Shown here: piece after piece, positions 23,575 to 50,279 of the stretch
Numbering within the stretch: the first letter of the stretch is position 1
How the letters are laid out: every line of letters begins with the position of its first letter
Assembly: GCA_048940445.1 (NCBI GenBank)
Contig: JBHLON010000003.1
Span: 1-64,000, forward strand
DNA length: 64,000 nucleotides
Origin: Promethearchaeota archaeon
Lineage (GTDB): Archaea > Asgardarchaeota > Lokiarchaeia > Sigyniarchaeales > SOKP01
Direction: 5' to 3'
The notes under the pieces: generated by a model
What the model saw: only the letters and a program-made list of their open reading frames with translations
What the model was told of the DNA's origin: nothing
Databases searched by the model: none
Translations under genes and position numbers: made by a program

Positions 23575-24432
23575 CTATATTTGGGTCTTCATTCTAGTTC
23601 TATGAAACTTAAGCCCAATTTCGTCAGGACTTATTCCCATTGCTAATGCTAAAAGCTCTGTTATATATAACACCGGAAGATCATAATCTGTGTCATACTT
23701 TTTATTCAAGTCTCTCTGGCGGGTATCAAATTGCTGAAAGCAAGAAGGACAATTTACACAAATTATATCTGCTCCAGCTTTTTTAATACTATCCATTTTG
23801 ATTTTTAAATTTGCTAAACCATGTTCCTCATAAGCATTAGTCACTGCTGATCCACAACATAAAACTATATCATCATAATCAACTACTGTTGCTCCTGCAG
23901 CTGCTACCAGTTTCTTTAAGTTCTGGGGACGCATGGGATCATCACTTTCCATCCATTCTGCAGGCCTCATATAATGACAACCAGGATGAACAGCAACTTT
24001 TAATCCGCTTAATGGTTTTGTTATTGCGCTTCTGATATTTTCTAAATTGTCTTTTAAAACATCAACAAAATGCTTTACGTCTACGTTTCCCTTATATTCT
24101 TTCCCAATTTTCGCTAATTGTTTGTTAACTTTTTCTCTCTTTAAAGAATCATGCTTTAATTGGTGTTGAACTCCTCTAAGAGTATTAGCACATCCATTAC
24201 ATAGTGATATAATATCTTTTCCTTCAGCTTCAGCAAGACATAGATTTCTAGCTCCTATTGCTAACCATGAATTATTATCATAACTTTTCATTCCTGTTGG
24301 ATCGGGACAACAGCTAAATGGTGCCTCTGAAGTGTCGATCCCTATTTTCTCAAATACTCTTCGTGAAGCGGCTTCTATAAAGGGAATTCGATTCCCTATT
24401 GTACAACCCTCAAACATCTTATATTCTGTCAT
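23575..24432 (-). CDS. hdrB: Heterodisulfide reductase subunit B
   Basis: GC, SCCP, ARNL, CNGC, HPGCH, CCG, CPSCFQQFD (two CCG domains). Confidence 0.93.
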   Translation of the reverse strand: MTEYKMFEGCTIGNRIPFIEAASRRVFEKIGIDTSEAPFSCCPDPTGMKSYDNNSWLAIGARNLCLAEAEGKDIISLCNGCANTLRGVQHQLKHDSLKREKVNKQLAKIGKEYKGNVDVKHFVDVLKDNLENIRSAITKPLSGLKVAVHPGCHYMRPAEWMESDDPMRPQNLKKLVAAAGATVVDYDDIVLCCGSAVTNAYEEHGLANLKIKMDSIKKAGADIICVNCPSCFQQFDTRQRDLNKKYDTDYDLPVLYITELLALAMGISPDEIGLKFHRTRMKTQI

Positions 24433-24957
24433 TTAATCATCCTCTAAATGTTTATTTAAGTTTTTATCTGCTCCAATATTTCTTAATAACATTTGAAGTT
24501 CATTAACGTCGGGTGTCATTATATTTGGTAATCCTAATTGTTCTCTTCTTCTTTCAATTGCGGGTTGCGAAGGAATTGCCTTAGCGTTCTCGAAAATCAT
24601 TTTTGCTTGAGAATAAATAAATTCAGGTGCTTTTCCTTGCTTCACCGATTGATTCTTCAAGAAAGCGAATATTTCGGTTAACTCAATTTTTTGGGGACAC
24701 ACTTCGTCACATGTATCGCAAACTGTGCATCCCCAAATGGTCAAGGGATCAGCTGAAAAGATAGCATCTTTATACCCCAATAAAGCATTTAGAATATTAT
24801 TACGTGGATTATACCCGGTAGTTGTATAGAAATCTGTTGTCACTTTCGTAACAGGACAATTGTCGGCACATCGACTACATTGGTAGCAATATTTGATCAA
24901 ATCAGACCCTATATGATAATCCATAACTTGTTTCCTAAACTCAAAATTTATTGTCAT
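24433..24957 (-). CDS. hdrC: Heterodisulfide reductase subunit C
   Basis: CYQCSRCADNCP and WGCTVCDTCDEVCP; ATG 24957 is the likely start. Confidence 0.9.
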   Translation of the reverse strand: MTINFEFRKQVMDYHIGSDLIKYCYQCSRCADNCPVTKVTTDFYTTTGYNPRNNILNALLGYKDAIFSADPLTIWGCTVCDTCDEVCPQKIELTEIFAFLKNQSVKQGKAPEFIYSQAKMIFENAKAIPSQPAIERRREQLGLPNIMTPDVNELQMLLRNIGADKNLNKHLEDD

Positions 24958-25003
24958 CTTTTTCACTATTTTCTGATATTTCATTCTTTATAATTGATAT
25001 TTT

Positions 25004-25077
25004 CGTTGGCTTTAACCCGTGCGTGGGCAGTTATATCCAATCTATGATTTTTATTGGATATTCATCCTAAGCCAACG
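25004..25077 (-). promoter_or_regulatory. Candidate SECIS-like RNA structure of vhuU
   Basis: Outer 9-bp stem CGUUGGCUU/AAGCCAACG; AUGA followed by a perfect 9-bp stem AUAUCCAAU/AUUGGAUAU closing an AAAAA-starting loop; the 3' side reads UAAC rather than NGAN. Confidence 0.55.
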
Positions 25078-25214
25078 TTTAACTCGCGAGAGTAAATCTC
25101 AGAGCCATTTTCATCGACTACAGTGATGTGTGCGGCACATGATAGTCAGCAATCAAAACAGCGAACTATCATTTCCAAAAGATTTACTACTCCTTCTGGT
25201 ATTTCTTCACTCAT
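25062..25214 (-). CDS. vhuU: Selenocysteine-containing small subunit VhuU of [NiFeSe] hydrogenase (UGA=Sec at 25146-25148)
   Basis: MSEEIPEGVVNLLEMIVRCFDC-U-LSCAAHITVVDENGSEIYSRELNVGLG*; supplies the DxUxxCxxH motif missing from the upstream large subunit; AGGCGA SD. Confidence 0.92.
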
Positions 25215-25243
25215 TTCTTTTTTATCGCCTTTATAGTTTAATT

Positions 25244-26548
25244 TTATTTTATCCAAGGGTCTGGTAACTTTAATCCGGACAAAGCATTTTGTTCAAATAC
25301 TTGTTTTGCAACATGCATTAATGTCTTTTCAATGCCAGCAATATTATGATTCGTAGCTACTAAAAGATTCGCCTTTTTGCATAAACCATCTGCATCTGAC
25401 CAAATATGATATAACAATAGACCACGTGGAGCCTCTACTAAACCAACCCCATCAGCCTCTCGTGGTTGAACATCTAGAGTCTTGCAATCTGGATTGACAA
25501 TATCTGGGTCTTGAAGCAATGTGGCGATCATTTCAATAGATTCAACTAGTTCAATTAACCTTGCCCAATGATACGCAAATGTATGATGGGATATGGCACC
25601 AACTTTTTCCCTCATGGCTCTTAAAGCCTCATCAGCTAAAGGAGTTGCCATTTTATCCGCAGCATTGATCATTGCTAATGTATTAGCCCTATAGATACCT
25701 TCTGGGTATCCAGCTGGTTTATAATACATATGAGTCGCATATGAATGCTCTGGAATATGTTCTCCTATAACATCTAAGTAATTTTGAGGGGGATAATCGA
25801 ATTTTTTCCCATCAGGAGCTACAATCCTAAGATCTCCTTCATAAATGTCGTGGACACCATTCTTAGTCATACCCGCATAATAAGTAGGTACGACTCCCAC
25901 ATTTGCAACAACATCCCAATAATCCTCTACGACTTTTAATCCGATATCTACTGTCTTTTTTGACCATTCTACCTGATCTTCAATTTGCTTTAAAAATAAA
26001 TCGCGAGCACTTTCATCCATTGGTTTTTTCATCCCACCAACTATACCACTTATAGGATGGACTGATTTACCTCCAATTTCAGCACATAACTTCTGTCCGA
26101 AATCCATCATCTTAAGGGCCATAGCACCCACATCTGGCATCTGACTAATTACATGAACCACATTCCTTAATGCAGGGTCTGCCATAGGACCTAATAAGAA
26201 ATCTGGTGCAGCTAATGCGTAAAAATGTAGTGCGTGAGATGAATATTGTTTTGCATTAATAAGCAATTTTCGTAATTTCAATGCCGGAGTAGGGATTTCA
26301 ACACCCCAAGCAGCTTCAACTGCTTTCGTCGGAGCTAAATGATGAGGAATCGGACATATTCCACAAATCCGAGGTGTGATCCGAGGGATATGTTCACAGT
26401 AACGGCCTTCAAGAAACTTTTCGAAAAATCTCGTTGAAGTAATGTTAAACTGAACATCTTTTACTTTTCCATCATCTCCTAAAACAATTTTTAATCCGCC
26501 ATGCCCTTCTAATCGGGTTACAGGTTCAACCTCTATTTCTTTTCCCAT
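25244..26548 (-). CDS. mvhA: F420-non-reducing [NiFe] hydrogenase large subunit (group 3c), lacking the C-terminal L2 motif
   Basis: TRLEGHG, RFFEKFL.GR, RICGICPIPHH, EAPRG, LVATNHN; ends at DPWIK without DPCxxC. Confidence 0.93.
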   Translation of the reverse strand: MGKEIEVEPVTRLEGHGGLKIVLGDDGKVKDVQFNITSTRFFEKFLEGRYCEHIPRITPRICGICPIPHHLAPTKAVEAAWGVEIPTPALKLRKLLINAKQYSSHALHFYALAAPDFLLGPMADPALRNVVHVISQMPDVGAMALKMMDFGQKLCAEIGGKSVHPISGIVGGMKKPMDESARDLFLKQIEDQVEWSKKTVDIGLKVVEDYWDVVANVGVVPTYYAGMTKNGVHDIYEGDLRIVAPDGKKFDYPPQNYLDVIGEHIPEHSYATHMYYKPAGYPEGIYRANTLAMINAADKMATPLADEALRAMREKVGAISHHTFAYHWARLIELVESIEMIATLLQDPDIVNPDCKTLDVQPREADGVGLVEAPRGLLLYHIWSDADGLCKKANLLVATNHNIAGIEKTLMHVAKQVFEQNALSGLKLPDPWIK

Positions 26549-26552
26549 TTTT

Positions 26553-27878
26553 CTATTCTCCTCCTTTATAACTTCTATTTGAAGCTAATGTGAACTTTTC
26601 AAAAGTCCCTAAATGATCCTTTACTTGCCTTAACAATTCTTCTTTTGAAATATCAACATTAAAGCCTTTAATTGCTGCATCAGCAAATCTACCTGCTTGA
26701 TCTGCCACCCATTCAGTCTGACCGAAACAGCCAGTACAGGGAGCGTTAACTTTTAGGCATAATCCACCACAACCTGCCTTAGTTACAGGTCCCATACAGA
26801 TATATCCTTGTTCAATTAAACAATCGTCCATATTTGGTAATCCTTCATAATCTCGTTTTACCCTTGTCATTCTTGATTTGCTACCAATTATTCTTGGACA
26901 TGTATCGCACACATTAGATATTTCGTGGAAATCAGGATTATCCCTCAAAAATCCTAATGCATTGGATGCAATCTCCTCGGTTGTATTTGGTAAATTCGCT
27001 AGTGGCGTCTCTGGTTTTCCTTTTTTCTTAACCTGCTTTAAAATATCTCCTGCGAGATCGAAACCAGCCATTAAGGGAATATTCAAGAATAACGATAAGA
27101 ACTGATACAGGCTCTTCTTGTCTCCAGAGCTAACGCCTCCCAAATTTGAAGACATAGTTTTTAATTTATCAGCTCTAGGATAAACAGATTTTGATGGACC
27201 GAAACACCCTACACAGGGTTTATTATCACTTGTACATTTTAGTTCGCATCCTACACTAGTAATTGGACCAAAACATAAAGTCCCTTTCTCTAACAAACAA
27301 TTCTCATTATTTAAAATGCAATTATTGCAAAAAGCAGAATCGTTCATAGGAAAAGGTTGTTGACCAAGTAGGAATTGAATTGCAGAAACGATAGCTTCTG
27401 GTTTAGGCGGGCACCCAGAAATATACGCATCAACTTTAATAATCGCATCTAAGGGTACTATTTTATCAGTGAATCCAGGCACGTTTTCTTTCGGTTCGTG
27501 GGGAGATTCATTAGTAATGCTCTCTACTTCAGTAAATTTCCGATTAACTAATTTTTGAACATCCCATTGGTTTGCTAACCCATGTACATTCCCATAGCAA
27601 GCACAAGAACCAAAAGATATGATAAGTTGGCACTTAGCTCTCATCAATTTAGCATTTTCAACATCTTCATTTGTTCTAAGACTTCCTTCAACGAATCCTA
27701 CTACGATATCTCCGTCTGGTCTAGATTTTAAAGAATCATGTTTCATATCTACAACTGCTGGCCAGTATACAATATCTAATGCTGGTAATACTGGCAATAA
27801 TCCTAGATGAGCATTCAATAAGGATTGATGACAGCCCCAGCAATCTGAACATTGCATAAAAGCAACTTTTACTGCCAT
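26553..27878 (-). CDS. mvhG: F420-non-reducing hydrogenase small subunit with duplicated C-terminal Fe-S module
   Basis: CWGCHQS, GSCACYG, GCPP, followed by two CxxC..CL....G..C.GP.T..GC...C.....C.GCFG modules. Confidence 0.9.
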   Translation of the reverse strand: MAVKVAFMQCSDCWGCHQSLLNAHLGLLPVLPALDIVYWPAVVDMKHDSLKSRPDGDIVVGFVEGSLRTNEDVENAKLMRAKCQLIISFGSCACYGNVHGLANQWDVQKLVNRKFTEVESITNESPHEPKENVPGFTDKIVPLDAIIKVDAYISGCPPKPEAIVSAIQFLLGQQPFPMNDSAFCNNCILNNENCLLEKGTLCFGPITSVGCELKCTSDNKPCVGCFGPSKSVYPRADKLKTMSSNLGGVSSGDKKSLYQFLSLFLNIPLMAGFDLAGDILKQVKKKGKPETPLANLPNTTEEIASNALGFLRDNPDFHEISNVCDTCPRIIGSKSRMTRVKRDYEGLPNMDDCLIEQGYICMGPVTKAGCGGLCLKVNAPCTGCFGQTEWVADQAGRFADAAIKGFNVDISKEELLRQVKDHLGTFEKFTLASNRSYKGGE

Positions 27879-28335: not shown

Positions 28336-28899
28336 TTAAAAATTTCCACATCCATTACATTTTCCATCGAGGAAAGCTGCACAATTCTTACAAACGTTTC
28401 CACATTCTTTTTCATGGCTCTCATGGCTAAATAAATTAATGGGGACATATTTTGGTTTAATAATTTCTGTAGTAAACATCACAGCAGAATGTAAAATGCC
28501 CTTTTTATTTGTGGGGCCACAATAGTTTAAATATCTATGGAGAATATCGAGATTTTGACCAATTACTCCTAAAATTAAATTATATTGTCCAGTTACAGGT
28601 GCCATTAAAAATACTCGAGGACAATTGGAGTAAGCTTTAATAATATTTTGGACTTCTTCAAAATTGACCATTTCCATTAATAAAAATAAACCTTTATACT
28701 GCAATCTGTTTAAGTTTGTATTAGCTTGAATTTTAATTATATCACTGTCTTCTAATTTTGTGATCCTTTTTGCTATGCCTGTATGACTCATAGTCTCTGT
28801 GTCAGACTTGATTATCTTTGTTTCTAAACTTGTTAAACTTTCACGTCCATTTTTGAATAACGCATTGAGTATTTGTTTGTCAATATTATCTAATTGCAT
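28336..28899 (-). CDS. Lrp/AsnC-family transcriptional regulator with Cys-rich C-terminal tail
   Basis: LDNIDKQILNAL..NGRES...MSHTGIAKRITKLE HTH; TGQYNL RAM domain; CGNVCKNC.......CNGC tail. Confidence 0.85.
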   Translation of the reverse strand: MQLDNIDKQILNALFKNGRESLTSLETKIIKSDTETMSHTGIAKRITKLEDSDIIKIQANTNLNRLQYKGLFLLMEMVNFEEVQNIIKAYSNCPRVFLMAPVTGQYNLILGVIGQNLDILHRYLNYCGPTNKKGILHSAVMFTTEIIKPKYVPINLFSHESHEKECGNVCKNCAAFLDGKCNGCGNF

Positions 28900-29386: not shown

Positions 29387-30049
29387 GTGGCAATTCAAAT
29401 GAAAAAAAAAATAATCCCTGTTATTGTACTCACTAGTTTTCTTTTGGTTTTAGTCGGTGGGGTGGTTGCATACCCTTCTTCCATCGAAGGGTTTCTTGGT
29501 GGTTCACATACTGGATGTCATGCTCTCGTTAGTCCCACTACAGAAAGTATTGAAGGAACAGTAACTGTTGATTGCGTTCAAGGCACATCATTAACAGCAG
29601 GACAATATTTTACTATAAATGTAGCAATAATAAATTTTACTGAGGCTTTAATTAATGATAGAGGCAGTGAAGTGAGCGTAGCAGTCGCTGCTACTCGTGG
29701 TGATAATGCTAATTTTGGTTCAAAATTAGATGAACCTGTAAGATTAGCAGAAATTACTTTGGATGGCAATGGTGATTCAAATGTTCCGATTTCTTTTGAT
29801 TTAATAGCTCCCACAACCGATGGTAGTTATACCTTAGTTGTTGATGCTTTATCTGCTGCAAATTCTACTGATGCTGTGGGCATAATTTATGCTTCAGGTA
29901 ATGTAGTTTTAACTATTAGTGGTGGAACTCCTGCAGCTCCTGGAATTCCTGGGTTTGAATTTTATACTTTGATTGGTGTGCTTGCTGTAACAGTTTCTTC
30001 TCTTATAGTTGTAGTAGTATATTGGAAGAGACAAAAACATTTCTTCTAA
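29387..30049 (+). CDS. Secreted, C-terminally anchored beta-sandwich protein with HxxCH motif (putative atypical c-type cytochrome)
   Basis: Signal peptide, mature YPS..., HTGCH at 29507-29521, C-terminal PGIPGF plus TM and basic tail (PGF/Loki-CTERM-like); directly upstream of ccmC. Confidence 0.7.
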   Translation: MAIQMKKKIIPVIVLTSFLLVLVGGVVAYPSSIEGFLGGSHTGCHALVSPTTESIEGTVTVDCVQGTSLTAGQYFTINVAIINFTEALINDRGSEVSVAVAATRGDNANFGSKLDEPVRLAEITLDGNGDSNVPISFDLIAPTTDGSYTLVVDALSAANSTDAVGIIYASGNVVLTISGGTPAAPGIPGFEFYTLIGVLAVTVSSLIVVVVYWKRQKHFF

Positions 30050-30200
30050 ATAATGCAAAATTATTTTTTTTTTTTTTAATTTGAAACAGCAATTATTTCA
30101 TAAGAACAAATTTTAAAAATGAATTAAAATAACTTCCAATTATAAGAAACTAAAGATATTTTTTATCTTACCTATTACCATTAGCTTTAACCGCAATAAA

Positions 30201-30962
30201 GTGAATCAAAGCTTATCAGATAGAAAATTTTATATTTATTTGAGAAACAAAATGAAAAGAACTAAGAATTGGTTCAGAAGCGATTATCTACTAATTACCT
30301 CAATTTCACTCCTAATTGTAAACTTGTTTTTCATTTTCTTTTTGACTAATTTTAGTCGTATTGTTTATATGATTTTTTATTATCATGTGTCATCAGCATG
30401 GCTATCTTATTTTTCGTTTGCTATAAGTTTTATTTTTCACTTATTATACTTAAAACAAAAAAAGTTATTATGGAATATCCTTGGTAAAAATAGTATTGTG
30501 GTGGGAGTCTTTTTTTGTGCTTTCACTCTAATTACTGGTTCACTTTGGTATAATGCTACTTCGGGAGGTTATAATAATGTCTACTGGCAATGGAGTGATG
30601 CAAGACAAACTATGACATTAGTCTTATTTTTATCATATTTATCTTATCTCATTTTTGGAGCGATGATTGAAGAAAGGGAAAAAAAAGCTAAATTAACTTC
30701 TATTTTGGGAATAATATTTTTTCCTATGGTACCATTGAGTTACTTATCAGCAATAATCTTTACTAGTTTACATCCATTGATAAATCCTAATCCAACTGGA
30801 TCGGGATATATTTATTGGGATTTTATGAAGCTTTTTGTATTATTCCTTAATTTATTTGCAATAACGATATTCTATATTTATGTAGTAGGAAATTTAGTTG
30901 AACTAGATCTAAATAAAGAAAAACTAAATGAGATCATTCAAAGTAATTTAAGAGAGGATTAA
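30201..30962 (+). CDS. ccmC: Heme exporter/cytochrome c biogenesis protein CcmC
   Basis: YYHVSSAW, LITGSLW....YWQWSDARQT (WWD domain), SLHP. Confidence 0.85.
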   Translation: MNQSLSDRKFYIYLRNKMKRTKNWFRSDYLLITSISLLIVNLFFIFFLTNFSRIVYMIFYYHVSSAWLSYFSFAISFIFHLLYLKQKKLLWNILGKNSIVVGVFFCAFTLITGSLWYNATSGGYNNVYWQWSDARQTMTLVLFLSYLSYLIFGAMIEEREKKAKLTSILGIIFFPMVPLSYLSAIIFTSLHPLINPNPTGSGYIYWDFMKLFVLFLNLFAITIFYIYVVGNLVELDLNKEKLNEIIQSNLRED

Positions 30963-30967
30963 AAATA

Positions 30968-31120
30968 ATGTCAGTATTTACAATGGATTTTATTACACTA
31001 ATTATTAGTTATATTTTATTTTGGATTATAATAATAATTTTGATTCTTTACCCAAAATTACGCTTAAGAAGAATAAAGAAAAGAATTAACAATTTAGAAA
31101 AAACCTATAAGAGAGATTAA
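30968..31120 (+). CDS. ccmD: CcmD-like small membrane protein (50 aa, not in ORF track)
   Basis: MSVFTMDFITLIISYILFWIIIIILILYPKLRLRRIKKRINNLEKTYKRD*: one TM with Tyr and a basic tail, between ccmC and ccmE. Confidence 0.7.
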   Translation: MSVFTMDFITLIISYILFWIIIIILILYPKLRLRRIKKRINNLEKTYKRD

Positions 31121-31121
31121 T

Positions 31122-31460
31122 TTGAAGAAAACCAAAATTGTAGCAATTTTAGCAATAATTTTTTCTTTAACTTTAATTGTTGTATTGGTAAGTATCAATA
31201 TACGACCGTATCTTAAAGTTTCTCAAGTTGTATCCAATCCTACAAGTTATGATAATCTTGAAATTCAAGTAATAGGAATTGTACAAGATTTTTCAGGGGG
31301 TAATTTTAACCTAACAGAAAATACAGATAAAATTCTAATTGATGTTTCTCAAACTACAATCCCCAGCGAATTAAACAATGGACTTCAAGTAGTTGTGATG
31401 GGTCAATTTAGCGCGGCTTTGATTTTAATAGCAACCCAAATCCTAACACAGTGTAGTTAA
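31122..31460 (+). CDS. ccmE: Heme chaperone CcmE, Cys-type with truncated C-terminus
   Basis: N-terminal TM, PYLKVSQV, QVIGIV, VVVMG, ATQILTQCS* (Cys at the heme-binding position, no downstream Tyr). Confidence 0.8.
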   Translation: MKKTKIVAILAIIFSLTLIVVLVSINIRPYLKVSQVVSNPTSYDNLEIQVIGIVQDFSGGNFNLTENTDKILIDVSQTTIPSELNNGLQVVVMGQFSAALILIATQILTQCS

Positions 31461-31467
31461 TATTAAT

Positions 31468-32184
31468 CTAATCAAATAACAACTGTTGTGAAACTAAAGT
31501 CAAAATTGAAGCCATAAGTATGATATGGGAACTTAAAAACAAAATTTCATATATTAAATTAGATATTGGAGTTAATTCTAATAATTTAATGTTGATTGAT
31601 ATGATAGGAATTGTTATTGGTAAAATTATAGGAAATAATAAAAGGGGTAAAATAAACGATTTTTTTTTAGCATACATAGTAAGTGCAGAAACTATTGTGC
31701 CACAAATAGATAAATCTATTGTTGGTAAAATAATACCTAAGAGTATGTAATCTAGCAATTGATAAAATTGCATACCAGGCGTTAATGGATTTGAAATAAC
31801 GAAACTAAATAGAAAAAGAATAATCTCAACAACACTTAATAATATAAAACAAAAAACTATTTTGCTGAATATAATCGTAGTAGCAGAAATAGGCGATGAA
31901 ATTAATCCTCCTAGGGTCCCAGATTCGCTTTCCTTAATAAATAATTTGGCCATTATAAAAATAAGAGTAAAAAAAATTATTAACCATATCTCAATTATAA
32001 ATATTTCAAGTGGCATCTGCTGATATTGTGTACTGAAGTTATATATGGATGAGAAAATAAAAATAGAAATAATATCAAAAAGAAATATTGAAAAAATATC
32101 ATGTATTTGGCGAATTTCTGATTTTATATCTTTCTTAATTAGAGCAAAGAATAATTTAATTCTAAATGTAAATTTTATCCTCAT
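31468..32184 (-). CDS. ccmB: Heme exporter permease CcmB
   Basis: KKDIKSEIR, FIKESESGTLGGL..SP, SKI, ILPLLLFPIILP. Confidence 0.85.
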   Translation of the reverse strand: MRIKFTFRIKLFFALIKKDIKSEIRQIHDIFSIFLFDIISIFIFSSIYNFSTQYQQMPLEIFIIEIWLIIFFTLIFIMAKLFIKESESGTLGGLISSPISATTIIFSKIVFCFILLSVVEIILFLFSFVISNPLTPGMQFYQLLDYILLGIILPTIDLSICGTIVSALTMYAKKKSFILPLLLFPIILPITIPIISINIKLLELTPISNLIYEILFLSSHIILMASILTLVSQQLLFD

Positions 32185-32203
32185 TTAATTCCCAACTATT
32201 ATC

Positions 32204-32917
32204 TTAAAAATATGTTTCTATTTCAAATTCTTCAAAATTCTCTTTTGTAATTACTTTATTAATCTTTCCCTTCTTTAAAACAATTAAATCATCACAAATT
32301 TTGGTTAACACCTCTACTTTATGGGTTGTAAGAATTATCGTCAAATCATTACCTTTTCTCAATTTTTGGAGTAAATCTACTAATAACTCACTTGCTTTAA
32401 AATCTAAACCGGAAAATGGTTCATCTAAGAATAAAATTGAAGGTTCAGGCATTAAGACTCTAATTATTTCAACCTTCTGTTTCATTCCGTGAGAAAGATT
32501 CCGAATAGGTTCATCTAACCAATCTCGGATATCAAATAAATTTGTAAACTTTTCTATTTTACGATTAATCTGATCTTTATTAAAATTATAATGTAGGTTT
32601 TCATAAAACTGTAGATTTTCATTGATTGTTAATTCTTCATAAAGAAAAGATTCTTCAGTAGTAATACCAATCGCATTTTTAATAAGACGTGGGTCTTCAT
32701 CAAAATTGTGTCCTTGAATATAAACTTTTCCAGAGGTTGGATTCGTTAATCCTGATAAAATCTTAATTAATGTTGTTTTACCTGCTCCATTTGCTCCAGC
32801 AACTCCAAAAGTTGTATTATTGATCACTTTGAATGAAATATTTTTCAATGCAAAGAAGTATCCAAATTGTTTTGAAATATTTTTACAGTTTATAATTACT
32901 TTATTTTCAATAGCCAA
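32204..32917 (-). CDS. ccmA: Heme exporter ATPase CcmA
   Basis: GANGAGKTT, LSHGMKQK, LFLDEPFSGLD, TTH; adjacent to ccmB. Confidence 0.85.
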   Translation of the reverse strand: MAIENKVIINCKNISKQFGYFFALKNISFKVINNTTFGVAGANGAGKTTLIKILSGLTNPTSGKVYIQGHNFDEDPRLIKNAIGITTEESFLYEELTINENLQFYENLHYNFNKDQINRKIEKFTNLFDIRDWLDEPIRNLSHGMKQKVEIIRVLMPEPSILFLDEPFSGLDFKASELLVDLLQKLRKGNDLTIILTTHKVEVLTKICDDLIVLKKGKINKVITKENFEEFEIETYF

Positions 32918-33027
32918 ATTCTTCGACCTATTATCTTATATTTAATATAGGAGTAAGTTCCTAAATGAAGCAAGTTAATTATCTTAAATTTAAATTAGTA
33001 AATAAAAAAATTTTGCTATTTAAAAGA

Positions 33028-33362
33028 TTATTTAATTAATCTTTTTGTCTTTGAATTCAGCTATAGAATAAGAAGTATAATGGAAATAGCCGAAACCGTG
33101 CCAATTATTAATCCTAAGTCGAATCCTGATACTATTTCTTCTCCAGGATTTACTATATTCCCTGTACATGATACTATTGATAAATATCCAGTATTAGTTT
33201 GAGCTGAAGAGCTGGAGAGCTGAAATGGCAAGATGCCCCAGGAGGGCTTCCATTAAAATTATCAAAATAACTTGGGTAAGTAAAAGTATACCCAGTAAAT
33301 AGCATTAAAGGGTAGATAATAATCATAAAAGGTAAAATTATCCTCTTTTTATTATATCTTAA
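33028..33362 (-). pseudogene. Decayed third paralog of the xxxCH secreted proteins
   Basis: Signal-like KKRIILPFMIIIYPLMLFTGYTFT, then YPSYFDNFNGSPPGASCH; frameshift at an 8-bp triplicated unit (33201-33222); then TNTGYLSIVSCTGNIVNPGEE joined directly to IVSGFDLGLIIGTVSAISIILLIL with internal TAG (33061-33063). Confidence 0.7.
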
Positions 33363-33499
33363 AGATCGCTCTTAATTTGTTAGGGTTATCTCAAACCTTT
33401 AAACTTATTTTTTAGAAAGATTTGTGAATTTAAACTATTGATGCAAAAATCGCAGCTAATTCCCAATAGTTTTTTAATAGTTGAAATTTAATTTTTTTA

Positions 33500-35206
33500 A
33501 TGAATTTTAATAAAAATTCCTTAAGATCAATTCTTATTTATGATTTTGTAATTATTATAACTATCGTTCTCATTATCCCAAATATATTAAACTTTGTTAG
33601 CTTAAATTTAAAAGTTCAAATATTATCTTATCTTGCCAACATCCTAATTATATTAAATATCTTATTTGTGATTGTAGATTTATTCTTTCTAATATGGAAG
33701 AGAGAAAATTATTTCTACCTTCCATCACTCAATATGACTCTATCAATTTCAATTTTCTTGCTTTTGGAATATTGTTTTGTAAATAATTATTATGATTTTG
33801 TGTATGTATGGAGTTATAGTGAATCAAGTTTAGCACTTGTTTATAAAATTGTTGCAATATGGGCAGGTCAAGCTGGTTCAATAATGACATGGATGGTGTT
33901 CAATTCTATAGTAATATTTTTTTATAGAATCAAAAATCAAGATAAAGAGGACAAAGTTTTCATTTGGTCAAGTATTTCTTCTATGCTAATATCTATTGTT
34001 TTTTTAATAATTCTATTTTCCCTTAATCCTTTTGAAGTTGAACCACCTGTATTATTTCCCAATGGCTTTGGACTTAATCCTTCCTTAATGTCTCCTTTTA
34101 TGATTTGGCATCCTTTTTTTACTTTTATAGCATATGCCATCTTTCTAATTCCATTTACAATTAGTATGACAGAAATTATAAAACCGCAATTTTCTTTAAA
34201 AAATCCATATCAACGGGCATTTTATAACTTCTCTTTAAAATTTGGATGGTTAGTTATTACACTAAGTATAGGTCTTGGTGCTTATTGGGCAAAAATCACT
34301 TCTAGTTGGGGTAGATATTGGGGTTGGGATCCAGTAGAGATTGTATCTCTTATTCCGTGGTTTTTTTGCACAGCTTTTTTTCATTCCAATCTATTTAAAG
34401 TAAAAAATGCAAAGATTATTAAAATGAATTCTATTTTGATCTTCCTTTCAATAATTTTTACAACACTGATAACAAGGGGAGGAGGATTAAGTTCGCTACA
34501 CGCATTTACAGGTGAAGGAGAACTAATTTTATGGGTTATAATAATTGGTATTATCCTATTAGTATTAGCATTATATGTGATTTATGAAGTGTTGAATTAC
34601 CTTTTCGAAGAATATCATAAAGTCAAAAGCCTTTTTGATTTATTAAGTTATCTCATTTTATTTTGTCTATCTTTTGTTTGCATTTTCGGCTTAATAATTC
34701 CTCCCTTAACTAGCTTCATATCTAATTTTATCGAAATAAACACGATATACCTTGGTTCAAACTTTTTTAGAATTCCAGCATTTTTATTAGCTATATTATT
34801 AGCAAGTACACTCATTTTCTGTTCTTTATGGGATATATATAAAGTAAAGTGGATTTTTATTACTATATTTATTATATTTTTTATTCAATTGACTATTTCA
34901 ATATTTTTACTATTTCTATTTAATATTTGGATTAATCCATTCATAGCTATCTGTTACTATGCTCTTGTGGCTTCGATATTTAAATTAATAAAGCAAACTG
35001 ACATTAAAATGGGATTTAATAAATTCTTTAGAATAAACTCAAAAACAATTATCCATGCTGGAATATCACTTATTTTAATTGGAAGTTTAATTAATGTTAG
35101 TTACGAAATTGCTCTAAGTATTTTTTACATTTCTGGATTTACATTTTTACTAATTGGGATAATTCCATCTATTTTTATAGTTTTTTTTATTAAAAATAAA
35201 CTTTAA
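33500..35206 (+). CDS. ccmF: Cytochrome c heme lyase CcmF
   Basis: WAGQAGS, GLNPSL, IWHP, GAYWA...WGRYWGWDPVE, FFH, SLHAF, IIHAG. Confidence 0.92.
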   Translation: MNFNKNSLRSILIYDFVIIITIVLIIPNILNFVSLNLKVQILSYLANILIILNILFVIVDLFFLIWKRENYFYLPSLNMTLSISIFLLLEYCFVNNYYDFVYVWSYSESSLALVYKIVAIWAGQAGSIMTWMVFNSIVIFFYRIKNQDKEDKVFIWSSISSMLISIVFLIILFSLNPFEVEPPVLFPNGFGLNPSLMSPFMIWHPFFTFIAYAIFLIPFTISMTEIIKPQFSLKNPYQRAFYNFSLKFGWLVITLSIGLGAYWAKITSSWGRYWGWDPVEIVSLIPWFFCTAFFHSNLFKVKNAKIIKMNSILIFLSIIFTTLITRGGGLSSLHAFTGEGELILWVIIIGIILLVLALYVIYEVLNYLFEEYHKVKSLFDLLSYLILFCLSFVCIFGLIIPPLTSFISNFIEINTIYLGSNFFRIPAFLLAILLASTLIFCSLWDIYKVKWIFITIFIIFFIQLTISIFLLFLFNIWINPFIAICYYALVASIFKLIKQTDIKMGFNKFFRINSKTIIHAGISLILIGSLINVSYEIALSIFYISGFTFLLIGIIPSIFIVFFIKNKL

Positions 35207-35266
35207 TCTATATCTCCTAGTGTTTCAAATAATTCTTTTTCTTTTTATAGTTAGATAAGGTCTTGA

Positions 35267-35343
35267 CTTTCGAGTTTAAACTTTTTTTAAAAAAATTGTT
35301 TCAGTTTGAAACTAAAGATTGATTGATTGTTTAAATTACTCAG
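35267..35343. promoter_or_regulatory. Three phased palindromic operator boxes
   Basis: CTTTCGA-G-TTTAAAC (35267), GTTTCAG-T-TTGAAAC (35298), GTTTAAA-T-TACTCAG (35329); 31-bp spacing. Confidence 0.6.
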
Positions 35344-35472
35344 TTTTGAAAAAAGTTAAAAATTGTTAAGTTTATAATAAAGTTAATTGCCAAACTTTTT
35401 TAAAATTTAAAAATAAGTTTTATTAAGGTTAATATCTGAAATATTGATCAAAAAAAATAATTAAAACTGCTA

Positions 35473-36342
35473 ATGATGTTGAATAAAAAAGTAATTGCAA
35501 TAATCTCAGCTTTTTTTCTAGTTGTTTTTGTCTCAATTTTTTTAAATGGAAGTGCTTTTCCGAGTTATAATCAACCTCATGAAAATTGTCATACTATTCC
35601 GGGAGGTTATTCAATTGAAACTAATATAACTACCTCAAATTCTGTCAACGCTTCATCTATTATTTCATTCAGCATTACAGCTACTGGTTCGAATTTGTTC
35701 ATTCAAGCACCTCCAGATGCTAAACAAAATAATGACTTTACTATTAACCCTACCACCACTAGAATATTAGATAATTCTGTATACGACTTAGATTCTGCTC
35801 TGAATGCAATGACGGTTATATTTAATATAACAGCTCCTTCAGAAGATGGATATTATATTATTCTCATCTTAGCTGGAGATAATTCTGTTTCTGGTAGTCC
35901 GCCTCCTTTCGATTATATAGATATAGCATTTAGTATTGGGGGTGAACTCCCACCAGCTCCAACAATAGATATATTTAATCATTTTGGAATCTATATGGGA
36001 TTGACTGCCTTATTGATATTATCTGTAAGTACAATTTTAGTTTTAATAAATGAGAATAAATTTGTGAAGATCCACGGTATTCTAGCTGGGGTTTCATGGG
36101 GTTTAACCCTTACAAATGTCATATCGCTAGCAATTTTAAATTCTGCAATCTGGACATCATTTTCATTTGGAATCCATTGGCCTCATATAATATTAGGAGG
36201 AGCTGGATTAGTTACCGGGTTCCTCAGTATGTTGTATGGGATCGCAGCAGAGCGAAAGAATGCAAAATTAACTGGCTATATAACTTTAATTTGCTGGTGG
36301 GCTGCTTTCTTTTCTGGCTTTTTAATGGTTCCATTATTTTAA
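35473..36342 (+). CDS. Secreted HxxCH beta-sandwich domain fused to a 4-TM His-containing (cytochrome b561/DUF420-like) domain
   Basis: Signal peptide, mature FPS..., HENCH at 35578-35592; TM helices with NHFG, KIHG and IHWPH. Confidence 0.7.
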   Translation: MMLNKKVIAIISAFFLVVFVSIFLNGSAFPSYNQPHENCHTIPGGYSIETNITTSNSVNASSIISFSITATGSNLFIQAPPDAKQNNDFTINPTTTRILDNSVYDLDSALNAMTVIFNITAPSEDGYYIILILAGDNSVSGSPPPFDYIDIAFSIGGELPPAPTIDIFNHFGIYMGLTALLILSVSTILVLINENKFVKIHGILAGVSWGLTLTNVISLAILNSAIWTSFSFGIHWPHIILGGAGLVTGFLSMLYGIAAERKNAKLTGYITLICWWAAFFSGFLMVPLF

Positions 36343-36348
36343 AAAAAG

Positions 36349-37863
36349 GTGATAAATAAAATGAATTATTCTAATACTAAAGAATTGAATAGTGAAACTA
36401 ATATAGAAGATCAGGAATTTGAGAGAAAAAAAGATAAACAGAATTTTGAAGAGGTACTGAAGGAGTTTATATCTCCTTATCATGTTAGCTCTAATCCTTA
36501 TGAGCTCGAATCTGCATCAGCAGATCTAACTTCACTTCCCTCATATCATTATAAATTCAAAAAAAGTTATTTAGCTAATTTACTTGTTCGTCCTGCAGAT
36601 ACTGCTAGTCTTTCAAAAGTAATAGAAAAATGTAGGGAACGAAATATTCCAGTTACAGTAAGAGCTGCTGGAACATCATGCTTTTCTTCAGCTACTCCCT
36701 CAAAAGGTGGTGTAATAATAGATACAAGGAGACTAAACATGATCCATAATATTGATAAAGATAATATGACAGTTAAAGTAGGGTCTGGTATATCTTGGTT
36801 AAATTTAATTGAAAAACTTGCTGATTATGGTCTCGCACCTAAATGTTATCCTACAAGCTTTAAAACATCATGTGTAGGAGGTTTTATCGCTACTCCAGGA
36901 ACAGCTGGTATAGGAGTATTAAAATATGGAACAATGAAAGATTCAATTATAAATTTAAAACTAGTCCTGCCAGATGGAAAAATCATATCCCTTTCCAAGG
37001 ATTCTAACGGAATGTTTACACTCGAAGATGCATGTGGAACTTATGGGATTTACGGTGCTATAGCTGAGGTTGAATTATCTCTAACTACTTTAAAAACCTC
37101 CCTAGAGATAGTTGGTTATGGGTTTAAATCGATTCATGAAGCGGTCGAATTTTATCAAAATTTGAAAAATGATTCAAATAAACCATTCTTTATATCTATT
37201 TCAGAACGAAAGTTTGAAATATATTCTCATGTTAATTTCCCTGATCAAGATTGGTTAGTTTGGGCTGTCTTTTACGACGATCCAGAGATAACATCTCAAT
37301 GTGTATCTGCATCTGAACGATATGCTTCTGAATTAAATGGAGTGGTAGTCGATAAATCATATTTAAAAGAAAAATGGCGTGATATCAGTGATGCAGAAGT
37401 AGCGATAGGAAGATCAAGTAGAAATTTAATTTTTCAAGAATATTGGATCGCTGATAAGAGATTAGAGTCATTTATCCAAAAATATCTCAACCAAGATAAT
37501 AAATACAAATTTCCAACAGCTTTATATACAATTTCAGGACCTTTAGGGTGGAGTAGGGTGAAAGTTTTTGGATTATCTGATATTGAAAAAACTAGTGAAT
37601 TTTTCACTGTAAAGGCGTTTTTACATGATCTCTCAATTCAGGCATTTGCTCAAGGTGATAGAGTATATACAATAGGAATTGTAAACACGTTTTATTTGTT
37701 TAAATATAGACCACAGTTAGTCTCGAAAATGAAAAAATTAAAAAATTTTCTAGATCCAAAGGATTTATTTAATTCTTATCGAATAGTAAATACTAGATTA
37801 AAATTCTGGAGAATATCATTATTGTTTAATACTGCGAAATTGTTGTATAAAATTTTTAAATAA
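36349..37863 (+). CDS. FAD-binding oxidoreductase (GlcD/D-lactate dehydrogenase-like, PCMH fold)
   Basis: VRP, PVTVRAAGTS, P.KGGVIID, SCVGGFIAT...G....KYG, LVLPDG, LDPKDLFN. Confidence 0.85.
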   Translation: MINKMNYSNTKELNSETNIEDQEFERKKDKQNFEEVLKEFISPYHVSSNPYELESASADLTSLPSYHYKFKKSYLANLLVRPADTASLSKVIEKCRERNIPVTVRAAGTSCFSSATPSKGGVIIDTRRLNMIHNIDKDNMTVKVGSGISWLNLIEKLADYGLAPKCYPTSFKTSCVGGFIATPGTAGIGVLKYGTMKDSIINLKLVLPDGKIISLSKDSNGMFTLEDACGTYGIYGAIAEVELSLTTLKTSLEIVGYGFKSIHEAVEFYQNLKNDSNKPFFISISERKFEIYSHVNFPDQDWLVWAVFYDDPEITSQCVSASERYASELNGVVVDKSYLKEKWRDISDAEVAIGRSSRNLIFQEYWIADKRLESFIQKYLNQDNKYKFPTALYTISGPLGWSRVKVFGLSDIEKTSEFFTVKAFLHDLSIQAFAQGDRVYTIGIVNTFYLFKYRPQLVSKMKKLKNFLDPKDLFNSYRIVNTRLKFWRISLLFNTAKLLYKIFK

Positions 37864-37994: not shown

Positions 37995-39362
37995 ATGAGC
38001 GAAGGTAAAGAAAAAGATGATATAAGAAATGTAATTACAACAGGTCCTCCGGTAGCTGGTTTAGTGTCACCATCTAAAGAAAATTTAATAGAACCTAAGA
38101 GTAAAAGAAAAGAGGAAAAATATTCTTATGAACGCTGTACTCATTGTGGATATTGTCGACATGTTTGTAGGGTTTATAATACCTCCTGGTCTGAAACAGA
38201 TTATGCAGGTGGACGGAATAGGATTATTAAAGCCCTTGATAGCCACGATATCAAATTTGATAATGAAAAAATAATACCTTCAGTATTTCGTTGTATGCTT
38301 TGTGGTAATTGTAGAGTCGTCTGTCCCGTTGGAATTGATACTTTAGAAGTTTTTCAGACTTTTCGGAAAGCGGTAGTACGGAAAGGTGCTATACCTCCTA
38401 AACTAATAACGCTAAAAAATTCAATTATTGAAAATAATAACCCGTTTTTAGAAAAGCATATTGATAGATTTAATTGGTGTGACGCTTGTGAAGAAGGAAA
38501 AGAAGCATATGAAAGAGCAAAACAAGAATTAGAATCAATAAAGGCTGAAGTCGACTTGGAAGTTCCTAAACGTATACCGGGTAAAGTAGGGTATTTCGTT
38601 GGATGTACTTCTTCCTATAGAAATAAAGAACTGGTAACTGCGACAAGCCAGGTTTTAGCAAAACTCGGAGTTAAATTTGTACTTTTTCCAGAAGAAAGAT
38701 GCTGTGGCTCAGTCTTATTTAGAACTGGGCTTGAAGATGAGGCTCTTGAACTTGTAAAACATAATTACAGAACTATTCTAGAAAGTGGAGTATCTGAATT
38801 AGTATTTTCTTGTTCCGGATGTTTTTCCACATTCACTCTTGAATATACTAAATATGCTGGTCATAAACTTGAATTTGATCTTTATCATCTAACACAATAT
38901 GTGTTAAAGACTGTGAAAGAAAAGAATTTAAAAATTCGATATACAAAGCGCACAAAAGATGATCCCTTACTAATTACATATCATGATCCTTGCCATCTAG
39001 GCAGATATTGTGGAGTTTATGAAGAACCAAGAGAACTTATAAATATGATTGAAGGTATAAAATTATTCGAAATGAAGCATAATCGAGATATGTCATGGTG
39101 CTGTGGAGCAGGTGGTGGTGTAAAAGCGTTATATGGTGAAATTGCTGGTGAGATTGGGAGAGATAGATTAACTGAAACTCGTACTTGCATGGTAAGAATA
39201 CGAGAGGATCGTCTAAAGGAAGCATTAGAAACTAATGCTGAAGTTCTTGTGAGCTCCTGTGTTTTTTGTAAAAACAATTTGTTTGAAGTTGCAACTGAAG
39301 ATAACTCACCTATAAAAGTCATGGATATTTCACAACTTCTAAACGATTGTGAATTCTATTAA
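37995..39362 (+). CDS. Fe-S oxidoreductase with two 4Fe-4S motifs and two CCG domains (GlcF/HdrD-like)
   Basis: CTHCGYCRHVC, CMLCGNCRVVCP, YFVGC, CCG, CSGC, YHDPCHLGR, CCGAGGG, CVFC. Confidence 0.9.
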   Translation: MSEGKEKDDIRNVITTGPPVAGLVSPSKENLIEPKSKRKEEKYSYERCTHCGYCRHVCRVYNTSWSETDYAGGRNRIIKALDSHDIKFDNEKIIPSVFRCMLCGNCRVVCPVGIDTLEVFQTFRKAVVRKGAIPPKLITLKNSIIENNNPFLEKHIDRFNWCDACEEGKEAYERAKQELESIKAEVDLEVPKRIPGKVGYFVGCTSSYRNKELVTATSQVLAKLGVKFVLFPEERCCGSVLFRTGLEDEALELVKHNYRTILESGVSELVFSCSGCFSTFTLEYTKYAGHKLEFDLYHLTQYVLKTVKEKNLKIRYTKRTKDDPLLITYHDPCHLGRYCGVYEEPRELINMIEGIKLFEMKHNRDMSWCCGAGGGVKALYGEIAGEIGRDRLTETRTCMVRIREDRLKEALETNAEVLVSSCVFCKNNLFEVATEDNSPIKVMDISQLLNDCEFY

Positions 39363-39395: not shown

Positions 39396-41459
39396 TTAAA
39401 TCAATTCAGGGATAATTTTCAGCTTCTTATTTTTTAAATGTAATTTTTTCAGTAAAGAAAGAACTGTTATCGATTTGGGTAAATCTGTTAAATCGTTGCT
39501 ACTTAACCATAATTGTTCCATTTCATTAAGTAAGCAGATTGATTCTGGGATAGTTCTCAGCTTATTATCATCTAAGTTTAAAAATTTTAAATCTCGAATT
39601 AATCCTATAGATTCAGGAAGCCAGATTAGCTGATTATTATTCAATCTTAAGACTTTTAAAGATTTTAAGTTCCCTATAGACTCTGGTAGCACAGATAAGT
39701 CATTCCAGGATAAATCCAGTGTTTCTAGTGAATAATGAAGATTGATTGAATCGGGGATTTTAATCAATTTATTGTTCATTAGGTATAGATGTTTAATAGA
39801 TTTTAATAACCAAATTGATGTAGGTAATAATTCCAATTTATTCCATCCCAATTTTAATGTCTCTAATGATTTGAGAGTCCCAAATACATCTGGCAAATTT
39901 TTTAATTTATTTTCTTCTACATTTAGGTACTTTAATGAAGTAAATAAATTTAAAGTAGAAGGGAGGTAAGTTAAAAGATTTTTCTCAAGATTAAGAGTTT
40001 GGAGTGATCTTAGTAGGCCAATCGATTCAGGTAGAATTTGTATCCTATTTGAACTTAAAATTAAATTCCTTAAAGAATTAAGATTACCGATGGAATCAGG
40101 AATTCGTTCTAATTTATTTCCTTTTAAGTCTAAGTACTCTAAAGAAGAAAGGTAACCTATTGAATTAGGTAATTCAGTTAGTTGATTATCTGATAAACTT
40201 AAGGATTCTAGCTTATAAAGTGCACCAATTGAAACTGGTAATTTTTTCAGTTTATTTTTATTCAAGTTTAACATCTTTAAAGAGGTGAGTTGCTCAATGT
40301 TTTTAGGTAAAGTACTAAGATTATTTCCTTCTAGATCCAGAATTTCTAAATTTTTAAAAGTATAAATTGTCTCAGGGAGGGTATAAATATTGCAATTTTT
40401 TAAAATAAGGTGTTTTATTGACCTGAAATTTTCAATACAGCTTGATAGAGTAACAATAGATTTTCCCTCAATAAGTAACTTGATTACTTCACCTTTTTGC
40501 ACTCCATATTGTAATTGAGGATTTTTCTTTTTCAAGTAACAAATAGTAATAAAATTTCTTAAAATATCAGATAACTTTGAAATCGAAATATTATCAATTG
40601 AAGCATATAAAATTAATAGCTCTTTAATTGAATTTACAAATTTTTTATCTTCAATTTTTTCAATTTGGTAAATCAAAGTCTTCTTTGCCACATCATTATT
40701 AAGTCTTTCTAAAGCTTTAATTAAAGCAATGTAACAATTGAAGGTTAAGTCGTTATTTAAAGCCCATTTCAGAGAAAAGAATTTAATTTCTTTTAGATTT
40801 TTTAGATTTCTCATCCCTGCTATATCAGTAGTATCTTTTAGTAATTCCCTATACCTCCAATTTATAACAAGATCATCAACTTCAGAGAAATCTAATTTAA
40901 TGATTAAACCATCTTTTAAAGTGTATTTGAGTTTTTTGAATTTCTTTAATAAAGAAAAAATAGTTGCATGATTAATTAGAATTTCTGCTAAATCTTGAGT
41001 ACTATAATTATAGATCAACTTATTTTTAAAGAGAACTGATAAATTCTTTTTAAATTGCTCTGTCTCTATCTTTTCAATTTCATTAATTAGAAGATTATTT
41101 ACCTCTATATCCTTAATCTTCATTAGAGATTTAAGGATTGTGATTAGACAATTATAGCAAGATTCATGTTGAAGAACCCATAAGAAAGGCTTTAACGCCT
41201 TCTCTTTAAATTTATTCTTTATCACTCTTGCAGCAGCATGTCTTAGATTCTCATTTGAGTCAGAAATTAAAATATTCTCCAATATTTGAAATACTCCATT
41301 ATGTTTAATGTCAATTTTATTTAAGATTTCAATAGATTCCTTCCTTATATTGTCATCATCAATATTTTCAATGATATCAATTAATAAATCTATGAATTTA
41401 GTTTTTCCGATATTTTGCCCCCTATAATCATTATATATTGCGCTAGGTTGTAAATTCAT
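39396..41459 (-). CDS. HEAT plus leucine-rich repeat protein
   Basis: About 15 LxxLxLxxNxLxxLPxxIG repeats; N-terminal SDSNENLRHAAA HEAT motif and a duplicated ~60-aa segment. Confidence 0.9.
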   Translation of the reverse strand: MNLQPSAIYNDYRGQNIGKTKFIDLLIDIIENIDDDNIRKESIEILNKIDIKHNGVFQILENILISDSNENLRHAAARVIKNKFKEKALKPFLWVLQHESCYNCLITILKSLMKIKDIEVNNLLINEIEKIETEQFKKNLSVLFKNKLIYNYSTQDLAEILINHATIFSLLKKFKKLKYTLKDGLIIKLDFSEVDDLVINWRYRELLKDTTDIAGMRNLKNLKEIKFFSLKWALNNDLTFNCYIALIKALERLNNDVAKKTLIYQIEKIEDKKFVNSIKELLILYASIDNISISKLSDILRNFITICYLKKKNPQLQYGVQKGEVIKLLIEGKSIVTLSSCIENFRSIKHLILKNCNIYTLPETIYTFKNLEILDLEGNNLSTLPKNIEQLTSLKMLNLNKNKLKKLPVSIGALYKLESLSLSDNQLTELPNSIGYLSSLEYLDLKGNKLERIPDSIGNLNSLRNLILSSNRIQILPESIGLLRSLQTLNLEKNLLTYLPSTLNLFTSLKYLNVEENKLKNLPDVFGTLKSLETLKLGWNKLELLPTSIWLLKSIKHLYLMNNKLIKIPDSINLHYSLETLDLSWNDLSVLPESIGNLKSLKVLRLNNNQLIWLPESIGLIRDLKFLNLDDNKLRTIPESICLLNEMEQLWLSSNDLTDLPKSITVLSLLKKLHLKNKKLKIIPELI

Positions 41460-42746: not shown

Positions 42747-42781
42747 TTCTCATTCAACCTATAATAACATTTTTCATAAAA

Positions 42782-43204: not shown

Positions 43205-43209
43205 GATAA

Positions 43210-46129: not shown

Positions 46130-46164
46130 CCCTTTAAAACCTCTTAAATTTTAATAGTAATAAA

Positions 46165-46740: not shown

Positions 46741-46913
46741 AAATTTTTCATTATTCTTCTATTTAATAAATTTTTTTGATAAAATAGTAATTTAGAAGAG
46801 ATAGGATAGACTTAACTTTAATTAAGTCTGTAAAAATAGACCTTTTCTTAATATTTAAGTTTTTCTTTTACTTAATATAGGATTGGGAAATTCTAACTAT
46901 TCAATCCTATAAT

Positions 46914-50245: not shown

Positions 50246-50279
50246 ATTGAATATTTATTTAAGTATTTAAACTAAAAAT

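Follow-up and report, generated by a model that had tools for sequence, protein, structure and literature searches.

Natural cytochromes c and c1 with a single heme-binding cysteine (A/FxxCH instead of CxxCH) are well established in the Euglenozoa, where a protein of the all-alpha class I fold is attached to heme by the second cysteine, beside the proximal histidine, in an organelle that has no cytochrome c maturation (Ccm) system; no histidine stands in for the first cysteine there. The System I* pathways of Methanosarcina acetivorans (PMC9084895) and Desulfovibrio use CcmA, CcmB, CcmC, CcmE and CcmF without CcmH or CcmI, and in archaea the absence of CcmH is ordinary, ccmD is described as missing and the CxxxY sequence of CcmE has been called universal (PMC9084895). 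In Escherichia coli, the Ccm system has been offered one-cysteine acceptors in the form of engineered XXXCH and CXXXH variants of cytochrome b562; such single-cysteine cytochromes are very poor substrates, and the pathway stalls with a covalent CcmE-heme-cytochrome complex trapped (PMC3268396). Here, we analyze a stretch of 64,000 nucleotides from a Promethearchaeota archaeon (the window), in which a ccm island at positions 29387-36342 is interleaved with genes for secreted proteins that carry a single Cys-His motif. On the evidence set out below, we assign a probability of roughly 0.7 to the reading that the island encodes a Ccm machine dedicated to one-cysteine, exported beta-sandwich clients. 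No description of such a system was found in open-access papers and preprints; a ccm-linked novel family reported in PMC10849945 belongs to the bacterial class HRBIN17 and not to Asgard archaea.

The window spans the first 64 kb of one contig (JBHLON010000003.1) of an assembly of 3.64 Mb in 139 contigs (30% G+C, 93% complete, 2.8% contamination), and the closest relatives of its proteins are labelled Promethearchaeota, Lokiarchaeota or similar Asgard names. Gene identities were assigned by a Pfam profile search of the open reading frames (ORFs), with an additional NCBIfam profile search. On the plus strand, ccmC (30201-30962; Pfam Cytochrom_C_asm, E 2.2e-15; NCBIfam ccmC match below the cut-off) is followed by a small ccmD-like membrane ORF (30968-31120; Pfam CcmD, E 8.5e-4, 19.8 bits against a cut-off of 25.6) and by a ccmE variant that ends in QILTQCS-COOH (31122-31460; Pfam CcmE, 28.3 bits, above the cut-off). 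The minus strand holds ccmB (31468-32184; Pfam CcmB, E 5.1e-12) and the adjoining ccmA, which encodes an ATP-binding cassette ATPase (32204-32917; Pfam ABC_tran, E 3.7e-32) and whose placement is conserved, while ccmF, encoding a short heme lyase of 568 residues, lies on the plus strand (33500-35206; Pfam Cytochrom_C_asm, E 3.1e-24). Interspersed among these are the genes for two intact secreted proteins, protA (29387-30049, plus strand; an ORF without a Pfam family) and protC (35473-36342, plus strand), as well as a pseudogene remnant of the protA family (33031-33353, minus strand). Two further plus-strand genes follow protC, one for a GlcD-like dehydrogenase dependent on flavin adenine dinucleotide (36349-37863; Pfam FAD_binding_4, E 1.2e-34) and one for an HdrD/GlcF-like iron-sulfur protein with CCG domains (37995-39362; Pfam Fer4 and CCG detected on an orthologue). 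The order protA, ccmCDE, ccmBA, ccmF, protC, GlcD-like, HdrD-like is common to the loci of five relatives.

Both intact proteins and the remnant carry a single Cys-His shortly after the signal peptide. By our own count on the translations, the motifs are HTGCH in protA (29507-29521), HENCH in protC (35578-35592) and GASCH in the remnant (33225-33239, minus strand), and the ORFs, Ccm gene names and motif coordinates given in the initial annotation were all borne out by ORF translations and Pfam. The two intact proteins are homologous to each other (BLASTP E 6e-07). A search for homologues of protC, which like protA has no Pfam family, returned 147 proteins; in the motif tally, which covers 120 of these 147 matches, Cys-His is present at the matching site in 119 and CxxCH in none, with the Loki-type proteins reading H-x2-C-H in 104 cases and H-x4-C-H in 14. 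An alignment of 45 protC homologues shows no variation at C39 or H40 and conservation of at least 90% at H36. For the protA family, an exhaustive HMMER search yielded 65 cluster representatives, 62 of which have Cys-His: 56 as H-x2-6-C-H, four as C-x1-2-C-H and two without an upstream His or Cys, the other three lacking Cys-His. Canonical CxxCH occurs in two of the four C-x1-2-C-H representatives (P0134 and P0157), both on contigs too short to include CcmE.

Since Cys-His is kept across the protC homologues and the protA representatives, a pattern far beyond chance, the site is under selection and not in decay; the idea that HxxCH might be a degenerate form of mostly CxxCH orthologues is ruled out by the same counts. 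HxxCH, as first proposed, is the most frequent version of a less strict motif, H-x(n)-C-H, in which an upstream His at -3 is common, not universal, and the spacing varies from 1 to 6 residues. A lipobox reading of the Cys was examined and ruled out, given its location 10-15 residues past the site at which cleavage is predicted and the invariant His that comes next. The third copy, described earlier as decayed, is a true remnant: by tblastn against a 798-residue orthologue (L010:13774-16170), only residues 3-74 and ~760-798 are left, with a frameshift right after CHFSS, an internal deletion of ~690 residues and a stop inside the anchor.

What the Cys-His site corresponds to is indicated by a second Asgard family, f31 (Thor-type; relatives labelled Thorarchaeota), from which 39 protC orthologues were sampled. 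These proteins, ~400 residues long, share both domains of protC, and their genes are followed by the same two downstream genes. At the homologous site they read C-x2 in 18, C-x3 in two (this being the tally, with a few more seen by eye), C-x4 in 15 and C-x5 in two, each followed by C-H, and the dominant spacings x2 and x4 are thus common to the His-type (Loki) and Cys-type (Thor) families. Because C-x2-C-H and C-x4-C-H of the Thor-type proteins face H-x2-C-H and H-x4-C-H of the Loki-type proteins, His would have replaced the first Cys of C-x(n)-C-H at matching spacings in the latter family. The comparison supports homology of the Loki-type Cys-His site to a genuine two-cysteine heme c site. 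A closed genome of 6.0 Mb (G138) has no Ccm gene, and its protC homologue (L052, G138:C1:4104780-4105790) has Ala-His instead of Cys-His, the His being kept. This is the outcome expected if the Cys exists solely for Ccm-dependent attachment, and in the G138 protein the same site may hold heme non-covalently (b-type).

These orthologues also bear on the proposal that the H-x-x-C-H site binds a metal ion or some other cofactor while the Ccm proteins serve an unrecognised substrate. The lack of a match to any Pfam heme family would fit such a proposal, as would the fact that Cys and His are typical copper ligands and that a truncated UniRef name, attached to one homologue, refers to copper and to cytochrome oxidase subunit II. 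We nevertheless hold it to be highly improbable, as the Thor-type orthologues read canonical CxxCH, the genome offers no other candidate Ccm substrate, in the closed genome without Ccm it is precisely the Cys that the homologue has lost, and a heme biosynthesis operon adjoins the island in one relative (G228, described below). A copper site as such was considered separately and dropped, no COX2 or cupredoxin family having been detected with Pfam.

The upstream His itself could be more than a leftover position, and its exact match to the place of the first Cys argues for a specific role. His-vinyl bonds are established for His130 of CcmE and His117 of cyanobacterial GlbN, and by analogy the client His might bond to the heme 2-vinyl, with the usual Cys thioether at the 4-vinyl; resolution of the CcmE-heme adduct, a task of the first Cys in classical substrates, would then fall to the His as well. 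Such a double linkage would explain why the His sits where the first Cys sits, with matching dominant x2 and x4 spacings, why no tabulated sequence has both a His and a Cys upstream, and why the His is so highly conserved in protC. It is harder to reconcile with a His spacing as wide as that seen here and with proteins that have neither His nor Cys upstream, namely some Loki-type paralogues (TLGCH, TIGCH) and a few protA representatives. Since these paralogues lack it, the His cannot be a general requirement, and we consider the double linkage possible but on balance unlikely.

The preferred reading, a Ccm machine devoted to one-cysteine clients, draws its second line of evidence from the machine itself. 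Like System I*, the island combines a CcmE whose heme residue would be Cys and not His with a CcmF that has the WWD motif and four His. The WWD motif aligns with that of Thermus CcmF (6zmq), and the four His (H204, H295, H334 and H519) are invariant in 11 CcmF sequences. Unlike System I*, the island has a CcmE without the Tyr, a CcmF that is shorter by ~105 residues, a CcmD-like ORF, one-cysteine clients and neither CcmG nor CcdA. The H/C-x-x-x-Y tail of System I CcmE is thus only half preserved, with the Cys present and the Tyr absent. In the clade of 56 CcmE sequences to which the window protein belongs, all 56 have a near-terminal Cys with no Tyr after it, and 53 end in QCS-COOH, the remaining three ending in QCR, QCSN and QCSS. 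In the window protein the Cys is the penultimate residue, and the TQCS ending reported earlier was confirmed as LTQCS-stop. CcmE proteins of the Asgard families f31, f32 and f16 have a C-P-S-K-Y or C-P-R-E-Y tail. The CcmF difference lies in a polar extracytoplasmic segment after residue 536, past the helix that holds the last His, which is missing from Loki-type CcmF (~570 residues) and present in f31 and f32. The profile PF01578 is found on both CcmC and CcmF, and the tryptophan-rich motif of CcmC is degenerate (WQWSDAR). Every Loki-type locus, as well as one f32 locus, keeps a CcmD-like membrane ORF of 48-53 residues between ccmC and ccmE.

In these sequences, CcmE tail type and client motif type go together, with QCS in the Loki-type loci and C-P-x-x-Y in f31, f32 and f16. 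As one-cysteine substrates stall the E. coli Ccm system (PMC3268396), a lineage without the first cysteine in its clients would need a different release step, for which the altered CcmE tail would be the obvious candidate. In contrast to the engineered E. coli case, the one-cysteine site is natural and conserved here, and CcmE and CcmF are altered. The island may for the same reason serve as a natural experiment on how heme leaves CcmE in System I, as it combines a one-cysteine acceptor, a Tyr-less CcmE and a CcmF that lacks a domain. A divergent relative (L008, G189:C1:3288000-3306000) carries ccmF as two tandem paralogues, and its CcmE ends in YCCDRSTGV-COOH. Its locus encodes xxxCH proteins together with two large secreted proteins that carry C-x3-H after the signal peptide (CGSGH and CDTGH), the other single-cysteine type, and each of the two lyases may have its own type of single-cysteine site.

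The initial annotation had also pointed to the lack of ccmG, ccmH and ccdA in the island. The absence is in fact wider, as a search of the whole 93%-complete genome turned up neither CcmH (PF03918) nor DsbD/CcdA (PF02683), and no ccmG was found either. As a trait of this type of Ccm system, however, it did not hold. The island of relative G228 has a ccmG-like gene, for a membrane-anchored thioredoxin-like protein, and ccdA between ccmF and protC, and its clients are likewise single-cysteine proteins. Because of this island, the missing thiol-reduction genes are best taken as a loss in some genomes and not as a feature of the Ccm clade.

A third line of evidence is that the Ccm genes of this organism have no other evident client. 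No secreted CxxCH protein was found in the 93%-complete genome, which speaks against a canonical substrate elsewhere as the explanation for the island; CxxCH occurs in 39 ORFs of at least 60 residues, all of which appear to encode cytoplasmic iron-sulfur or zinc-ribbon proteins. Twelve ORFs came out of a genome scan for C-x2-5-C-H/K motifs preceded by a hydrophobic segment at the N-terminus; none was convincing, and one of the motifs lay inside the signal peptide itself. Neither family members beyond protA and protC nor an EB_dh protein or a real cytochrome bd were found in this genome. We also surveyed 400 Asgard genomes, of which 134 belong to family f1, the family of the present genome, and 22 to family f16. 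Full-length protC and the close CcmF clade were detected in the same f1 genomes, usually a few hundred bases apart. The only genome with full-length protC and no CcmF match is G234, in which protC lies at a contig end and a ccmC-like match occurs elsewhere. The predicted co-occurrence of client and machine holds in f1, with two genomes from the survey (G273 and G282) standing against it. 

Structural modelling gives some idea of what the clients might do. The AlphaFold2 model of protC (predicted local distance difference test score 84) comprises a signal helix, a poorly ordered stretch with the motif, an immunoglobulin (Ig)-like sandwich at residues 47-155 and a four-helix membrane bundle at 173-285. 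Invariant positions of the bundle region in the 45-sequence alignment are three His (H170, H201 and H238) and the AAER turn. In protA, the signal peptide and the HTGCH motif are followed by a beta-rich domain, and the protein ends in a membrane or sorting anchor. It has a sub-threshold Heimdall-CTERM match (NCBIfam) and matches the choice-of-anchor V profile NF041895 below the cut-off of 42 (26.9 bits, E 4.1e-06), a profile that protC does not match, and it may be a distant relative of that domain. Its protein language-model look-alikes are 'Reelin domain' clusters, with a score of 0.88, which is below the reliable level. Matches of the membrane domain are to common four-helix bundles, with Z scores up to 11.9, which is below the meaningful level for helical bundles. 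A cytochrome f-like ligation by the N-terminal amino group, suggested by a mature X-Pro start and a beta-rich fold, was dropped because the structure matches are generic; it is only among Loki-type protC proteins that Pro at position 2 does not vary.

The neighboring genes suggest a role in electron transfer. The GlcD-like and then the HdrD-like gene always lie 3' of protC, in both Loki-type and Thor-type loci. The HdrD-like protein has sub-threshold NCBIfam matches to TfrB, LdhH, GlpC, GlcF, TmcB, HmcF and DsrK, and the iron-sulfur subunit with CCG domains that characterizes modules of the HdrDE/DsrMK type is present. CCG proteins such as HdrD, DsrK, HmcF, TmcB and GlpC work with membrane cytochromes b, as in HdrDE, DsrMK, HmcEF and TmcBC. 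Because CCG families pair in this way, we take protC for the portion of a dehydrogenase complex that lies in the membrane and outside it. As in those modules, an HdrD-like CCG gene lies beside a gene for a His-rich membrane protein and the linkage is conserved; the differences are that the membrane partner here is a family-less four-helix domain fused to a putative outer heme c domain, that a GlcD-like protein belongs to the set and that no link to quinone or methanophenazine is evident. By analogy, the triad of protC, GlcD-like and HdrD-like genes points to a transfer of electrons through the membrane, which could run either outward, with a 2-hydroxy acid as the source, or inward, with a disulfide as the acceptor. 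Complex prediction with the HdrD-like protein and residues 160-289 of protC gave a score of 0.00, which has no bearing on whether the two bind. In f31, the four-helix membrane domain seen in protC is found by itself too, as a protein of 130-270 residues encoded beside further GlcD-/HdrD-like pairs, several times per genome (L003-L006).

Taken together, these data are most simply explained if the island is a remodelled archaeal System I, CcmABC(D)EF without CcmH, whose clients are an exported family of beta-sandwich proteins. Each client would bind one heme through the invariant Cys-His after the signal peptide, with the Cys forming a thioether to a heme vinyl and the His acting as proximal iron ligand. 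As in the Euglenozoa, heme c would be held by the second Cys beside the proximal His, here on an Ig-like beta-sandwich. The first Cys of the ancestral or sister C-x(n)-C-H would have been replaced, mostly by His at matching spacing. Shortening of CcmE to a QCS-COOH end without the iron-binding Tyr, along with the loss of the C-terminal extracytoplasmic segment of CcmF, would adapt the hand-over of heme to a one-cysteine acceptor. protC would serve as a transmembrane wire, in which the outer heme c domain and the His-rich four-helix anchor (probably with heme b) link the cytoplasmic dehydrogenase to the surface, and protA would be a surface carrier or terminal protein. What remains of the original proposal of a Ccm variant for single-cysteine attachment is the dedication to one-cysteine sites, carried by the homologous heme c site, the CcmE tails and the lack of any other client, whereas HxxCH proved too narrow a definition of those sites.

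Several observations weigh against this explanation. No Ccm gene was detected in two genomes, G273 (93% complete) and G282 (78% complete), whose homologues of protC nevertheless read NCH or CNCH. The agreement between CcmE tail and client motif stems from essentially one evolutionary transition, and the paralogues without an upstream His do not share the substitution. Structure searches (Foldseek, VIA-align and Atlas) gave only generic Ig-like or macroglobulin-like and four-helix-bundle matches, and covalent heme is a prediction for every member of the family. Furthermore, one client paralogue of the window island (33031-33353) has decayed, and the organism itself has neither HemB nor HemC in its 93%-complete genome.

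Because of the last point, any function of the island would depend on an outside supply of heme; lacking a tetrapyrrole pathway, the cell would have to scavenge it. HemB was found in one of the 134 f1 genomes, so most members of this family, the present organism included, must on this gene content obtain heme from outside. In f16, HemB was found in 1/22 genomes and CcmF in 17/22, and over the whole survey CcmF was found in 87/400 and HemB in 20/400. Given this disparity, heme-dependent functions seem to run on scavenged heme, and cytochrome maturation without tetrapyrrole synthesis seems to be common in Asgard archaea. The sole f1 genome with HemB is G228, which has a full hem/ahb operon (the siroheme route) 7-10 kb from its ccm island. 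The operon comprises hemA, hemL, hemB, hemC, a cobA-hemD fusion, ahbA/B and two radical S-adenosylmethionine genes, and both the operon and the island with its extra genes are on G228:C2 (L013:1914-11583 and L014:10513-11847); two genes for EB_dh-domain proteins lie upstream in the island. The position of this operon ties the island to heme.

Alternatively, the island could be a relic, its Ccm genes and clients unused in a cell without heme synthesis and heading towards loss. The missing HemB and HemC are what a relic would predict, as are the lack of ccmG and ccdA, which G228 keeps, the paralogue that is already a pseudogene, and the patchy presence within the genus, where CcmF was found in 8/41 genomes. 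Its eight remaining genes are intact, however, and the catalytic His and WWD residues are invariant. Moreover, the island is kept at 50-80% identity in ~27 other f1 genomes, only one of which has HemB, and for this reason an intact island without heme synthesis is the stable state of the clade and no recent accident. We therefore regard a relic as improbable and retain the reading of a working machine for one-cysteine clients.

If the clients do carry heme, Loki-type Asgard archaea would have surface and transmembrane cytochromes that have so far gone uncounted. Archaeal cytochrome inventories count CxxCH, and by such counts this genome and its clade have zero cytochromes c, yet they keep a complete and specialised Ccm system. 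Models usually cast Loki-type Asgard archaea as fermentative syntrophs of the hydrogen or formate type, and heme-bearing clients would bear on how electrons are passed to partners, a matter central to syntrophy models of the origin of eukaryotes. A bolder version of the hypothesis would see here a new class of cytochrome, with one thioether and one His-vinyl bond, installed by a Ccm machine whose CcmE holds heme by a near-terminal Cys without a Tyr ligand, and forming a scavenged-heme conduit from a cytoplasmic hydroxyacid/HdrD-type dehydrogenase to the surface and on to syntrophs or minerals; in this full form we consider it rather doubtful.

Immediately upstream of the island, a minus-strand gene (28336-28899) encodes an AsnC/Lrp-type helix-turn-helix protein with a Cys-rich C-terminus (Pfam HTH_AsnC-type and HTH_24, with a weak DUF6171 match). 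Orthologues lie immediately upstream of protA in two relatives (L012 and L013), each of which has two divergently oriented copies. From its position, the protein is a candidate regulator of the island. On the other side, directly 3' of the HdrD-like gene and on the opposite strand, lies a gene (39396-41459) whose product, 687 residues long, has HEAT repeats and numerous leucine-rich ones. The island is flanked on both sides by clusters of the Mvh/Hdr type, for hydrogenase and heterodisulfide reductase (23575-27878 and 42072-48722). One of them has HdrB-, HdrC-, VhuA- and VhuG-like genes, and the other has genes for a polyferredoxin, MvhD, HdrA, HdrB and HdrC together with a second small-subunit-like gene. 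These clusters are followed by hypE, hypD and hypF at 49148-53800.

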